Source: Bacteroidales bacterium
GTDB taxonomy: Bacteria; Bacteroidota; Bacteroidia; Bacteroidales; UBA3824
Reading direction: 5' to 3'
Assembly: GCA_017964465.1 (NCBI GenBank)
Contig: JAGCRY010000182.1
Span: 1-51,188, forward strand
DNA: 51,188 nt
The notes under the pieces are model-generated. The model was not told where the DNA came from and searched no databases. It saw only the letters and a list, made by a program, of their open reading frames with translations. Every line of letters starts with the position of its first letter. Position 1 is the stretch's first letter. Positions 439 to 7,039 of the stretch are shown piece by piece. The position numbers and the translations under genes are program-made.

Positions 439-1167
439 TTAGAATTCAATTTCGATGTTTGCAGGTGCAAGTTCGAGACTTGCGCCAGACACAGGGTCTT
501 TGTCAAAGGTGAATGTTACCGTGAACGTGTACTTGCCCTTGTCAGAAGGATGATTTTTTAGATAAAACTTTGCTCTCTCAGGAAACAAAATCTCACCTTT
601 GAAGTCCGAAAGGTGCGAAATGGAATCCAGTGAATAATCTCTGACATTGTCATAGTCATTCGGCTCATATCCATTCTTGATGAATGAATTGTATCGCGGA
701 TAACGGATGTCAAACAAGTCATTAAGCAAAGCCCCAGCTGGATGAGCCTCGTCGAAATCTTTGTCGGCGACAATAGAAATAGACTTCAACGGCATCATGC
801 AACCGTTTCCGTTGCGTTTTTGGAAGTGCCTTCCCCAAAATGACGTATCTCCATAAAATACGGCATATTCATGGAATTTTGAAAGAATTGAATCGTGACA
901 CCACGAATAATTAGGGTAATAAGACGTACTCTTTACCCCACTGACATTAAAAACTGAGATGTCAGCAATGAATGTAGCATCTTGGTCGTCTAAATACACC
1001 GGGATTATTAACGCCAAACAATGAGGTGTGAAGAAAGACTCCATGTAACTACCGGTTTTGTATACACCAGCAGAATTTGCAACATTGTCAGAAGAAGATT
1101 CGTTGTCTTCCTTGCTACACGACCACATCAGTAGTCCTGCAAGAAGTGTGAATAGTATCTTTTTCAT
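439..1167 (-). CDS. Lipoprotein, paralog 1 of 3 (orphan copy; possibly DUF5034-like, unverified)
   Basis: Lipobox LMWSC followed by SKEDNE. Shares DFDEAHPAG..LNDLF and C-terminal GKYTFTVT..FDKDPVSG..LELAPA.IEIEF with 1381-2094 and 3836-4540. Confidence 0.85.
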   Translation of the reverse strand: MKKILFTLLAGLLMWSCSKEDNESSSDNVANSAGVYKTGSYMESFFTPHCLALIIPVYLDDQDATFIADISVFNVSGVKSTSYYPNYSWCHDSILSKFHEYAVFYGDTSFWGRHFQKRNGNGCMMPLKSISIVADKDFDEAHPAGALLNDLFDIRYPRYNSFIKNGYEPNDYDNVRDYSLDSISHLSDFKGEILFPERAKFYLKNHPSDKGKYTFTVTFTFDKDPVSGASLELAPANIEIEF

Positions 1168-1178
1168 AGTTGTGTTGT

Positions 1179-1205
1179 TTAGTTAGGGTGAATATTTGTT
1201 GAAAT
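1179..1205 (-). pseudogene. Remnant 3' end of a deleted third C10 peptidase
   Basis: Minus strand reads att tca aca aat att cac cct aac taa (ISTNIHPN*), matching the C-termini ISTNIHPNK* and ISTQIHPNK* of the intact peptidases, fused directly to the cassette promoter. Confidence 0.8.
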
Positions 1206-1212
1206 TACGTCA

Positions 1213-1293
1213 CAAAAGTATAGCATAAATTTTTAAAATGCAATACCACGAAAGTAGTATTTTTGCAAAAATTTTATACTACGAAAGTGGTAT
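1213..1293 (-). promoter_or_regulatory. Cassette promoter 1 with paired 18-bp palindromic boxes
   Basis: -7 element TACTTTTG (1213-1220, minus). Boxes ATACCACGAAAGTAGTAT (1243-1260) and ATACTACGAAAGTGGTAT (1276-1293), 33 bp apart. Confidence 0.8.
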
Positions 1294-1305
1294 TTTTAGG
1301 GGAAA

Positions 1306-1358
1306 ACAAACAACCGACACCAAAATATATGATGTGAATTTTGGTGTCGGTTGTTTGT
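1306..1358 (-). terminator. Intrinsic terminator after lipoprotein 2
   Basis: 21-bp perfect stem acaaacaaccgacaccaaaat / attttggtgtcggttgtttgt, with a T-run on the minus strand. Confidence 0.85.
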
Positions 1359-1380
1359 AGCAGTGTGTTTCATGTGTGTG

Positions 1381-4540: not shown

Positions 4541-4547
4541 AGTTGTG

Positions 4548-6044
4548 TTATTTATTAGGGTGAATATTAGTTGAGATGTACAAATAGTACTTATAATCAT
4601 ACTCGTCTGGATAGATATTATCTGATGGTTTCAATTCATTATGTTCATCCAATTCGTAGGCTTTGTTATTGTTAAGCACATTTGTAGCGTAATAACCATC
4701 ATTTAAATCACTACATCCCCATCCCCAGTTAAAATGTAAGAAGCAATCAGACTGACCTGTTGTCCATGTGTTTACTTCAAACTCGCTAGAAATTTGTCCG
4801 TTAGAATCATCGCGATATATAATTAAATATGTAGTCTGATGATCTACGGTAAAGTATTTTTTTGCATAGCCATCTATAATCCAAGTGTGACCGTCATCTC
4901 CATTACTGCTTGGATTTGATTTTGTACACCCTGTCATTAATACAGGTCGTCTATTGTCTATGGAATTTGTAATGTCATAGATGTAATATCTTGACAAATT
5001 ATTGCATGAATAGTTTTGTCCTCTTAGAAAGGAAATGGCATCTTTTGTATATGCAGGACTGCCGGTTGCCCCGTAGATAGTTCCTATATGATTACCCACA
5101 TATCTCACAAATCTTGCCACTTCATCTTTATGATTTGGTTTAGAAGGGTTCACAATGTCAGACCAATTGAACGGGAACTTGTTGCTATATGCTGGTTTCC
5201 TCCAATATGTCATCAATTGAGCGGTAGCAATAGCAACACATCCTGCATAGCATGGTGTTCCGTTTATTACAGGTGCATTGTTGTTATATGGTTTTAATTG
5301 ATGCCATTTCGTTGTGATGTATGGACCAACAATATCTGTTCGCAAGTAGGTGGCACGATCCCAACTGGCAGTGCCTATGAAAATTCTGTTCGTTACTACC
5401 TTGCTTTTCGACAGACTAACCATAGTGTCTTGACTTACGTCCTGTGCAGCAAGCAACTTTTCTGTGAGTGATTGCTCCACAGAATCCCTTTTGGCTTCAG
5501 CATTTGCGACACACAAATCAACGTAATCCTGTGCCATGTCCATAAAGATCTGTAGTCCTGGATTGTCGGTATCTACGGAAACGTTTCCCGCTTCCGAATA
5601 TGCAAGTACACGTTCAGGAACCCTGATGTCGGCACTTACGACAGCGTAGCCTTCATCATAGTTGAATACGTACAGCATTGTGTCGAGGTTTTCAGTCAAA
5701 GAACCTGATTTGCTAAGGCAGTTCTTTGACCTTGTGAGAACTTCGCATCGCGGTACTGATGTGCCGCTTTTGGAGAGGGTGGATGAAACAGAGCCTTTGC
5801 CCAAGAAATTGTTGGCAATGTCCATAGCCTGTTCCATGGAGATTTTCGGTGTTTTGTTCGACAATTCTTCGAGCAAAATCATCTCGTCTTGCGAAAGTAA
5901 TACTCTTGGAACTTCTTTCGCCGATGATTCTTGTGGTGATTCGGTTGCAGAAACTTCGCCGTTAGGTGATAGTTCATCTTCGCACGCAACGAAAGCGACT
6001 GCGAAAAACAACACAAGAAAACTCATTGATAGAATCTTTTTCAT
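4548..6044 (-). CDS. C10 family cysteine peptidase lipoprotein, paralog 2
   Basis: Same length (498 aa) and colinear with 2104-3600. AGCVAIATAQLM, GHTWIIDGY, HFNWGW. Confidence 0.93.
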   Translation of the reverse strand: MKKILSMSFLVLFFAVAFVACEDELSPNGEVSATESPQESSAKEVPRVLLSQDEMILLEELSNKTPKISMEQAMDIANNFLGKGSVSSTLSKSGTSVPRCEVLTRSKNCLSKSGSLTENLDTMLYVFNYDEGYAVVSADIRVPERVLAYSEAGNVSVDTDNPGLQIFMDMAQDYVDLCVANAEAKRDSVEQSLTEKLLAAQDVSQDTMVSLSKSKVVTNRIFIGTASWDRATYLRTDIVGPYITTKWHQLKPYNNNAPVINGTPCYAGCVAIATAQLMTYWRKPAYSNKFPFNWSDIVNPSKPNHKDEVARFVRYVGNHIGTIYGATGSPAYTKDAISFLRGQNYSCNNLSRYYIYDITNSIDNRRPVLMTGCTKSNPSSNGDDGHTWIIDGYAKKYFTVDHQTTYLIIYRDDSNGQISSEFEVNTWTTGQSDCFLHFNWGWGCSDLNDGYYATNVLNNNKAYELDEHNELKPSDNIYPDEYDYKYYLYISTNIHPNK

Positions 6045-6112
6045 TGTTGTTTTGTATTTGATTAATTACTCACCTTATAAAAAAAAGGTCATGTTCAATC
6101 TTGAACACGTCA

Positions 6113-6193
6113 CAAAAATATAGCATTAATTTTTAAAATGCAATACCACGAAAGTAGTATTTTTCAAAAAATCTTATACTACTTTCGTAGTAA
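6113..6193 (-). promoter_or_regulatory. Cassette promoter 3 with paired boxes (distal box has inverted core)
   Basis: -7 TATTTTTG (6113-6120). Boxes at 6143-6160 and ATACTACTTTCGTAGTAA at 6176-6193. Confidence 0.8.
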
Positions 6194-6239
6194 TTTTGGG
6201 GTAAAAAGCAATAAAAGTTGATTTTTAATGAGAAAAATA

Positions 6240-6270
6240 TTTGTGCGTTTTTCAATTATATATAAATTTG
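6240..6270 (+). promoter_or_regulatory. Bacteroidota sigma-A promoter of the LuxR gene
   Basis: TTTG (6240-6243) and TAAATTTG (6263-6270). Confidence 0.65.
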
Positions 6271-6301
6271 CAGATGCTAAGTTTTTTATCTAAACCTAAT
6301 T

Positions 6302-7039
6302 ATGAAAGTTAAAGATTTCTTTAAAGATTACAATGAGGTCAAAGCACCGTGCGACGTGGATGAATCTTTTTTGAGCGGTGTCATACATGCTGCCGAGGCT
6401 GCAACGCGGTCGTCTGGCGATGGCATTTATGTGGTGGATTACATAAGAAGAAAAGTAGTTTACGTGTCGTCCAACATTGCACGATGGTGCAATATGCCTA
6501 TAAATAAAGACTCTAAAGGCGGTTATGATGGTTATCTCGAACATATCAACGAAGAAGATTCTCGGATGCTTGACGAAATCAACCGTGTTTCTTTTGATTT
6601 TTGGAAGGACATGTCTGACGAAGAATGTATGAGTTATTCGGTATCGTACGATTTCCTGTTAGGCAACGCAATGCTCCATCAGCGTTACACTCCTATTTTG
6701 GTAAAAGACGGTTATGTTGTTATGGCGATGTGTATTCTTTCGCCTTCTCAGAGCAAAAAATCAGGAAACGTTGTAATGTCGTCCCCTGAAAATCAATACG
6801 AGTATATCTATTCCTTGACCAAAAGAGAATGGTCTAAAGTTGCAAAAATTTGTTTGTCGTCACGTGAAAAAGAAATAATACGTTCTTCTGTAAAGGGCTT
6901 GTCGTCCACCGAAATTGCTGAAAAAAACGGAACAAGCGAAACAACTGTAAAGACTCAAAAGCGGTTTTTGTTTAAAAAACTCGGAGTAAAAACCATGAGT
7001 GAAGCCATAAGTATAGCAATGAACAAAGGGATGCTGTGA
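6302..7039 (+). CDS. LuxR-family transcriptional regulator with N-terminal PAS-like domain
   Basis: C-terminal LSSREKEIIRSSVKGLSSTEIAEKNGTSETTVKTQKRFLFKKLGV HTH. N-terminal GIYVVDY..KVVYVSSN; no receiver domain. Confidence 0.92.
   Translation: MKVKDFFKDYNEVKAPCDVDESFLSGVIHAAEAATRSSGDGIYVVDYIRRKVVYVSSNIARWCNMPINKDSKGGYDGYLEHINEEDSRMLDEINRVSFDFWKDMSDEECMSYSVSYDFLLGNAMLHQRYTPILVKDGYVVMAMCILSPSQSKKSGNVVMSSPENQYEYIYSLTKREWSKVAKICLSSREKEIIRSSVKGLSSTEIAEKNGTSETTVKTQKRFLFKKLGVKTMSEAISIAMNKGML

Follow-up and report, generated by a model that had tools for sequence, protein, structure and literature searches.

The C10 cysteine proteases of Bacteroides are encoded beside small genes proposed to control them. 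In the available text of the two reports, the Bfp/Bfi system of B. fragilis and the Btp/Bti system of B. thetaiotaomicron each pair a short C10 lipoprotein zymogen (~435-500 amino acids (aa), with a propeptide) with a second gene, bfi or bti, that lies 4-35 base pairs (bp) from the protease gene and is co-transcribed with it; paralogous copies occur in each genome, and Bfi and Bti, exported proteins or lipoproteins of 116-138 aa, are the proposed staphostatin-like inhibitors of these proteases (PMC2873492, PMC3462683). The SpeB-Spi pair of S. pyogenes is organized similarly: a C10 protease with an I69 (Spi-like) prodomain is accompanied by an adjacent small gene proposed to control it. Here, a locus is described in which short C10 proteases are followed by a larger lipoprotein (hereafter, the partner). 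The DNA is from a Bacteroidales bacterium (GTDB UBA3824; assembly GCA_017964465.1, contig JAGCRY010000182.1), whose metagenome-assembled genome is 64% complete and contains 2,371,336 bases. The window is the whole stretch of this contig that was analyzed, 51,188 nucleotides (nt), and the protease-partner array occupies positions 439-7039. The reading tentatively preferred here is that the array is a surface module activated by a LuxR-type regulator, in which the partner would be a non-catalytic accessory of short C10 proteases. C10 operons with a small second gene are known already; what differs here is the large, unnamed partner family, its restriction to short C10s within the genus, and a conserved PAS-LuxR regulator with a paired operator. 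No description of the partner family or of the module was found in the open-access literature searched (DUF5034, C10 with LuxR, and operons of C10 with a lipoprotein).

The region contains two intact cassettes and one deleted cassette, with every cassette gene on the minus strand. An intact cassette is composed, in order, of two palindromic boxes, a promoter, a leader, the gene for a 498-aa C10 lipoprotein zymogen, the gene for a 234-242-aa lipoprotein and a strong terminator, and the two full copies are linked by direct repeat families at a spacing of 2444-2457 nt. One copy encodes C10_B (2104-3600) and the 237-aa partner B (1381-2094), separated from stop to start by 9 nt (2095-2103). The other encodes C10_C (4548-6044) and the 234-aa partner C (3836-4540), separated by 7 nt (4541-4547); a longer frame for partner C reaches 4600 but is not used by its homologues, and the start at MKRLLF was therefore taken. 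Partner A (439-1167, 242 aa) has no protease gene upstream. The gene for the LuxR-type regulator (6302-7039, plus strand) is divergent from the array. An earlier note on this DNA, made from the letters alone, had described a LuxR-linked array with operator boxes, in which a cassette of about 2.45 kb occurs twice intact and once in deleted form and each peptidase stop falls 7-9 nt before the start of its partner. That layout was confirmed by the open reading frames (ORFs), the repeats, the two gaps and a C10 remnant in the third copy, and the association with the regulator by conservation of the box pair beside its orthologues at other loci.

Both proteases are, on sequence criteria, intact lipoprotein zymogens of the short type found as Bfp and Btp in Bacteroides. 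In each, an Inhibitor_I69 prodomain at residues 67-175 (59.1 and 57.2 bits; Pfam cut-off 25) precedes a Peptidase_C10 domain at residues 247-452 (106.9 and 94.9 bits; cut-off 26). The catalytic Cys269 (in a G-C pair) and His386 do not vary among 19 aligned relatives and are present in both window proteases, which are 82% identical to one another.

The N-termini of the proteases and partners bear on where these proteins might be found. Both proteases have a signal peptide with lipobox Cys21, followed by E-D-G or E-D-E. In partners A and B, Cys17 is followed by SKEDN and SKEDS, respectively, and their common C-S-K-E-D matches, at +3 to +5, the K-(D/E)2 motif published as the Bacteroidota lipoprotein surface-export signal (PMC5080379). 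Partner C, in which the Cys is followed by NKGDNE, and the proteases (C-EDG and C-EDE) fit the signal loosely; the acidic residues at +2 to +4 of the proteases resemble the B. fragilis export consensus of the same source (PMC5080379). The proposal in the earlier note that the C-SKED(N/S) N-termini of the partners resemble this signal holds for A and B; partner C begins C-NKGDN instead and fits less well. Because lipoprotein signals are combined with acidic residues resembling the export signal, both the proteases and the partners are probably lipidated and located at the surface of the cell or of vesicles.

Each of the three promoters contains two 18-bp palindromes, ATACTAC-N4-GTAGTAT, positioned 33 bp apart from start to start. 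Promoter C (6113-6193, minus strand), which is shared with the divergent regulator gene, has its -7 element at 6113-6120 and its boxes at 6143-6160 and 6176-6193. In promoter B (3669-3749, minus strand), the -7 element TATTTTTG is at 3669-3676 and the boxes are at 3699-3716 and 3732-3749; in promoter A (1213-1293, minus strand), the -7 element TACTTTTG is at 1213-1220 and the boxes are at 1243-1260 and 1276-1293. These six boxes are the only matches with one mismatch or fewer in the entire 2,371,336-base assembly, and allowing two mismatches added six single sites scattered over it. This box pair, again spaced by 33 bp, adjoins a regulator orthologue at four outside loci: L018, L020, L024 (one record with L093 and L121) and L094 (which coincides with L122). 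Two further loci, L022 and L014, retain one box each, and no recognizable box pair is left beside the more distant regulator orthologues (39-49% identity; L019, L025, L123 and L124).

Alignment of the promoters across loci placed a TTG directly against the proximal box and the sequence TAnnTTTG ~20 nt further on, followed by a leader with two small hairpins. The two elements correspond to the -33 and -7 consensus of Bacteroides promoters, and the implied geometry puts the center of the proximal box near -44 and the distal box near -77. As the proximal box abuts the -33 TTG, and centers at about -44 and -77 are an activator layout, the regulator most likely activates, rather than represses, the three promoters.

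The conserved 5' leaders of C10_B (3601-3668) and C10_C (6045-6112), both on the minus strand, each contain the two small hairpins. The leader sequence after the -7 element is conserved across species (L018, L020, L024 and L094), including at loci with a partner alone, and comprises the inverted repeats GTGTTC..GAACAT and ACCTT..AAGGT, then GAGTAAT. Its first hairpin, with the U-run, resembles a weak terminator. The two window leaders fold with modest stability (-13.1 and -15.9 kcal/mol; z -2.1 and -3.1), and the leader is lost at partner A. Its possible functions are attenuation, control of RNA stability and the binding of a further protein. A scan of the window against Rfam found no family.

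A GerE helix-turn-helix occupies residues 185-239 of the regulator (46.4 bits; Pfam cut-off 23.5). The Pfam scan of the protein gave no PAS domain; however, a model predicted from nine orthologues (predicted local distance difference test score (pLDDT) 84.1) has a PAS-fold sensor at about residues 20-180. The best Foldseek matches to the model were the B. thetaiotaomicron LuxR-type regulator 3clo (E 1.7e-9) and VqmA (E 1.9e-6); RhlR, EL222 and many PAS and LOV domains were also matched, with Foldseek probabilities of 0.97-1.0 for 3clo, VqmA, EL222 and the PAS/LOV domains. PAS_3 or PAS_4 is present in part of the regulator's language-model look-alikes. The description of the gene as a divergent PAS-LuxR regulator, as first proposed, is therefore secure by Pfam for the LuxR (GerE) part, and its PAS part holds for the predicted fold. 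The protein resembles the one-component regulators of the VqmA and 3clo type in combining a PAS-fold sensor with a C-terminal LuxR helix-turn-helix, but its identity to the Foldseek matches is only 12-21%, and the paired 33-bp boxes and the targets are specific to this module. Palindromic operators beside the promoter are a trait of the LuxR family and are common to regulators of the VqmA and 3clo type. The available text of the Bfp/Bfi and Btp/Bti reports describes neither a PAS-LuxR regulator nor a box pair (PMC2873492, PMC3462683).

Partners A and C are 78% identical and partner B is 53-54% identical to either; their N-terminal halves diverge more quickly than their C-terminal halves. Among 5.8 billion proteins, a word-indexed search identified 29 relatives, including those of the window, all of them lipoproteins of 213-319 aa; C17 and K19 are invariant in the resulting 30-sequence alignment. 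When a 56-member profile was searched against 1.84 billion representatives, 2446 proteins passed E <= 0.001, of which 1551 also passed 1e-10 and 352 passed 1e-30. Pfam accounted for few of these: among 88 representatives drawn from the best 150, three passed the DUF5034 cut-off, one matched weakly and 84 had no family (E <= 0.001). An NCBIfam scan gave signal-peptide matches only. A Peribacillus match from a scan of named genomes with the three partners (28% identity over 91 residues only) was set aside as doubtful.

One described relative of the partners is DUF5034 (PF16437), a family of Bacteroidota lipoproteins that is itself without a known function. The earlier note had suggested testing this family, and the connection holds weakly. 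The window partners fall below the 25-bit cut-off (the best, partner C, scores 14.5 bits, E 0.035), weak matches occur in 10 of 30 close homologues, and the host genome contains no DUF5034 match. On the other side, a bona fide DUF5034 protein (L120:1375-1944, 36.4 bits) has the motif SI-x-I-x3-DFD-x2-H-x-AGT-x-LNDLF in common with the partner family, and hhalign aligned the two with a probability of 96.2% (E 2.4e-9), over 33 columns only. For the two families compared, the shared motif reads SI-x-V-x3-D-x-DFD-x2-H-x-AGT-x-LND. The partner family is accordingly classed, by sequence comparison, as a large sister group of DUF5034 in the Bacteroidota, unnamed and essentially outside Pfam.

An AF2 model of partner B (pLDDT 82.5; predicted template modeling score 0.78) consists of a low-confidence, disordered linker at residues 13-31 and a predicted beta-sandwich with three helices at residues 43-237. 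Foldseek found no PDB match to the model at E <= 0.001, and a PDB sequence search with the family profile found nothing meaningful. The best match of a second fold search, independent of Foldseek, had a Z-score of 6.5 (C-glycoside deglycosidase beta subunits and Ig-like domains), which is in the range of common sandwiches. Five residues, D104, D136, H139, D147 and P202, are at least 90% conserved in a broad alignment; the first four are conserved in C10-linked and unlinked members alike, and in the bona fide DUF5034 protein. The Asp/His/Asp residues may form one binding or metal site.

How closely the partner is tied to C10 proteases was examined across genomes. Contig C135 of the host genome carries a fourth cassette, which has diverged further (C10 at 8360-9778, 292-aa partner at 7461-8339). 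The genome also contains two solo distant partner paralogues on contigs C116 and C59, and two ~900-aa C10 genes without a partner (C142, 8842-9471; C126, 9967-10539); the partner profile did not match the C-terminal extensions of these long C10s. The solo paralogue on C59 (15407-16261, 284 aa) is preceded by a gene for a 166-aa small lipoprotein with no assigned family (16367-16867). The genus was surveyed in 25 genomes (the family holds one genus), with C10s identified by Pfam and a partner start sought within 700 nt downstream. A partner followed 20 of the 28 C10 rows in frames of 531 aa or less, a count in which two loci are split into two rows each and two of the eight misses are at contig ends, and it followed none of the 14 long C10 rows (frames of 900-2274 aa). 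From the partner side, 22 of 55 rows (E <= 1e-8) were downstream of a C10, either directly or through another partner.

Beyond the genus, 301 genomes of the order were sampled, and a partner was considered convincing if it matched at E <= 1e-9 and reached the C-terminal domain; matches at E <= 0.001 occur in 140 of the 301 genomes but mostly cover the first ~100 model positions (signal peptide and lipobox), and were not counted as members. Convincing partners were found in seven of the 298 genomes outside the genus. Three of the seven, from three other families (G038, G153 and G270), have a C10 directly followed by a partner; in one (G092) the order is reversed; and three lack adjacency, one of which (G261) has no Pfam C10. 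Among 130 partner ORFs outside the host genome, 79 were linked to a C10, 39 were unlinked and 12 were at a contig edge, and the same ORFs form 62 clusters at 70% identity (29 linked, 4 mixed, 20 unlinked and 9 at contig edges). The C10 detector for this survey was a hidden Markov model (HMM) built from linked C10s, so that 'unlinked' may miss divergent proteases, and the metagenome and genus locus collections overlap in part. Fused C10-partner forms were sought among proteins of 521-2000 aa and none was found, a negative of little weight.

The exceptions to this linkage take several forms. Regulator and partner occur together without a C10 at six loci (L019, L020, L024, L025, L094 and L124). 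Partners occur in tandem arrays of two to four (up to four in L030), and a single C10 may precede two to four partners. Distant members of the family sit after GH97, HlyD-type or GT4 genes, and one genome that is 98% complete (G010) has seven partner-family matches and no Pfam C10, although the HMM flags a 63-aa fragment beside one of the seven (L118). In one linked cluster of 28 near-identical human-gut loci (L064-L091; e.g., L065:3459-4333), a 216-aa partner has only a 72-94-aa C-terminal C10 remnant upstream of it, with a 331-aa frame of no Pfam family further upstream; here the protease looks decayed and the partner intact. The partner-only loci, the tandem arrays, the genome without a Pfam C10 and the motif common to unlinked members suggest that the family serves a broader role. 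The linkage to C10 is strong but not obligatory, and in this genus it is specific to short C10s. The check that the earlier note had proposed, i.e., whether partner homologues consistently lie downstream of C10 genes, thus gave a frequency far above chance, but not an obligatory association.

The arrangement of the array immediately raises the possibility that the partner inhibits its cognate C10 or acts as a chaperone of the zymogen, the two being produced at a fixed ratio so that the protease is not active too early. The partner would then be a larger, unrelated functional analogue of Spi, the staphostatins, Bfi and Bti. Its position and spacing are those of bfi and bti as the available text gives them (4-35 bp, co-transcribed; PMC2873492, PMC3462683), it follows most short C10s in the genus, and some known protease inhibitors are beta-sandwiches. 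One of them, Ipi of B. subtilis (3isy), appeared in the fold search at rank 33 with a Z-score of 4.9, which indicates no more than a common fold. However, the sizes differ, since Bfi and Bti have 116-138 aa and the partners 234-242 aa here and 213-319 aa in the close family. The SpeB-Spi pair differs as well: Spi resembles the propeptide, whereas Inhibitor_I69 was absent from the three window partners and 30 close homologues and lies instead within the protease itself, which already has its own prodomain. No staphostatin, the fold of which is a lipocalin-like barrel, was among the matches listed from the two fold searches, although such a listing alone leaves the fold possible.

A direct comparison was made with a 126-aa lipoprotein ORF of a Bacteroides metagenome-assembled genome (L128), found via the published Bfp1_R primer; this single sequence is taken as Bfi1B-like from its position directly after the bfp1 3' end, and hhalign of the partner family profile against it aligned only positions 1-50, which are the signal peptide. 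A scan with the Bfi1B_F primer found nothing. At this locus (L128 403-2022), the 3' end of the bfp1-like C10 is kept and the rest is replaced by a stretch with an integrase-like ORF (403-1698, minus strand), while the Bfi1B-like ORF is intact. The view that the partners are larger than, and unlike, Spi and the staphostatins thus holds for size, for Inhibitor_I69 and for this one Bfi1B-like sequence. An inhibitor bearing an N-terminus like the export signal would also travel with its protease rather than stay behind; two to four partner genes can follow one C10; partners occur with the regulator alone, and in a genome with no Pfam C10; and the best-conserved residues are common to family members unlinked to C10. 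An inhibitor or chaperone role is, on this evidence, somewhat improbable, and none of the analyses favored the inhibitor, immunity or maturation-factor function suggested in the earlier note. A complex prediction for C10_B residues 215-498 and partner B residues 30-237, each given its own alignment and with the prodomain left out, gave scores of 0.32, 0.19 and 0.19 against a mark of 0.32, and speaks neither for nor against binding.

The same exceptions could also be read to mean that the partner is an independent surface lipoprotein, e.g., a ligand-binding or adhesive one, that is merely co-regulated with the protease and functionally uncoupled from it. The regulator and box pair are conserved beside partner genes even where there is no C10, distant members among the 2446 representative clusters stand in unrelated contexts, and partner A is under purifying selection with no protease in cis. 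An independent role is nevertheless unlikely. The gaps of 7-9 nt, with neither promoter nor terminator between the genes, indicate an operon; C10-partner adjacency in at least four families of the order would be hard to explain without a shared function; and the absence of partners from all 14 long C10s hints that the partner belongs specifically with short lipoprotein C10s.

A further alternative is that the partner is a substrate of the protease, i.e., a surface pro-protein that the protease would release or activate by cutting within the disordered linker. The low-confidence linker lies between the lipid anchor and the folded domain of the model, where cleavage could occur, and co-expression would ensure processing. 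The linker is, however, the most variable part of the partner and has no conserved cleavage motif, and the partner-only loci, together with the genome that lacks a C10, argue against dependence on a protease. A substrate role is very unlikely, and the least probable of the explanations considered.

The third copy of the cassette has the partner alone. It retains the boxes and the -7 element, which then join 23 nt left over from the 3' end of a C10 gene (1183-1205, minus strand; repeat family D9, 91% identical to 4555-4577 inside the end of C10_C) and partner A directly. It is therefore a true, clean deletion derivative from which the leader and nearly the entire protease gene have been lost. 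Terminator hairpins follow all three partners: at 377-407 after partner A (-28.4 kcal/mol, z -7.95), between its stop and the end of a proA-like gene at 354; at 1306-1358 after partner B (minus strand; a perfect 21-bp stem, inverted repeat I3; -31.6 kcal/mol, z -8.07); and at 3762-3816 after partner C (minus strand; inverted repeat I7; -24.0 kcal/mol, z -5.6). None of 200 shuffles folded as well as any of the three.

The ratio of nonsynonymous to synonymous divergence (dN/dS) was 0.31 for C10_B and C10_C (synonymous divergence, dS, 0.36), 0.20 for partners A and C (dS 0.69), and 0.17-0.23 for partner B with A and C, for which dS is near saturation. With dN/dS at 0.17-0.31, all five genes are maintained under purifying selection. 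Either duplication of the partners preceded that of the proteases, or the protease copies have been homogenized. The synonymous divergence of the two protease genes varies along their length: it is 0.65 for the prodomain and 0.18 for the catalytic domain, where dN/dS is 0.59, and exceeds 2 over the final 38 codons. This unevenness suggests that gene conversion has taken place or that the genes are mosaics. In a sheep-gut metatranscriptome run, the only one found (share 0.07), two contigs that are 95-99% alike to the window covered partner A at 416-844 and 875-1181; this is a weak hint that the partner gene of a close relative is transcribed, as DNA may occur in an RNA library. The run was otherwise uninformative, with 26 of 30 bins lacking cover.

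The tandem arrays and orphan copies of the partner also resemble arrays of orphan immunity genes, and divergence of the partner is quicker in its N-terminal than in its C-terminal half. Both features would suit an effector-immunity pair, in which the C10 attacks surface proteins of competitors, the partner protects the producer, and partner-only genes are orphan immunity genes. This is very unlikely. The values of dN/dS are well below 1 wherever measurable, PADLOC returned no match for the proteases or partners (and only weak helix-turn-helix matches for the regulator), and there are no secretion or delivery genes among the neighboring genes. To our knowledge, no C10 protease is known as an antibacterial effector. 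The array is flanked by the end of the proA-like gene (1-354) on one side and by a dihydroorotase-like gene (7102-8451), then mutS, on the other, and no mobile-element genes were noticed beside it among the ORFs of the window. A 197-aa lipoprotein-like ORF with no assigned family (8539-9132) lies between the dihydroorotase-like gene and mutS.

An accessory role for the partner is tentatively favored over these alternatives because its conserved site is common to members unlinked to C10, because its copy number varies, because it remains beside the regulator at loci that lack the protease, and because it bears the same export-type signal as the protease. In the proposed mechanism, the regulator would sense a small ligand through its PAS domain and would bind, most likely as dimers, to the two 18-bp palindromes 33 bp apart. 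It would thereby activate the three promoters, two of which would drive operons of C10 and partner and the third the partner alone. The partner, a predicted beta-sandwich with a conserved Asp/His/Asp site, would bind or tether either the protease, its substrate or some other component of the surface, and would not be an active-site inhibitor of the Spi or staphostatin type.

Several observations weigh against this proposal. Binding of the partner to anything is putative, and its fold, as modeled, is a generic sandwich that offers no functional lead. The coupling at 7-9 nt and the position after the protease are exactly the arrangement of Bfi and Bti, and gene order would fit an inhibitor equally well. 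Linkage of the partner to C10 is only partial, at 22 of 55. Surface exposure is read from a motif that was defined in other species and that partner C fits less well, and activation is read from box position only.

The C10 proteases of the Bacteroidota have been studied as colonization and virulence factors, and the control of their activity is poorly known. The array offers three handles on this problem: a defined operator with a putatively ligand-sensing regulator, a partner family of ~2400 clusters outside Pfam, and a naturally deleted cassette in which that promoter drives the partner alone. A bolder interpretation, which is doubtful at present, is that the partners represent a new class of cysteine protease regulators, held at the surface by a lipid anchor (inhibitors or immunity proteins, with orphan copies and arrays), and that together with the short C10s they would form a VqmA-like PAS-LuxR module, controlled by a small molecule, that switches on surface proteolysis in gut Bacteroidales. 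If the partner does control or direct the protease, a large family could be named, and it would represent a second, unrelated solution beside Bfi and Bti. If it does not, the array would still be part of a conserved PAS-LuxR regulon in Bacteroidales of the ruminant gut.

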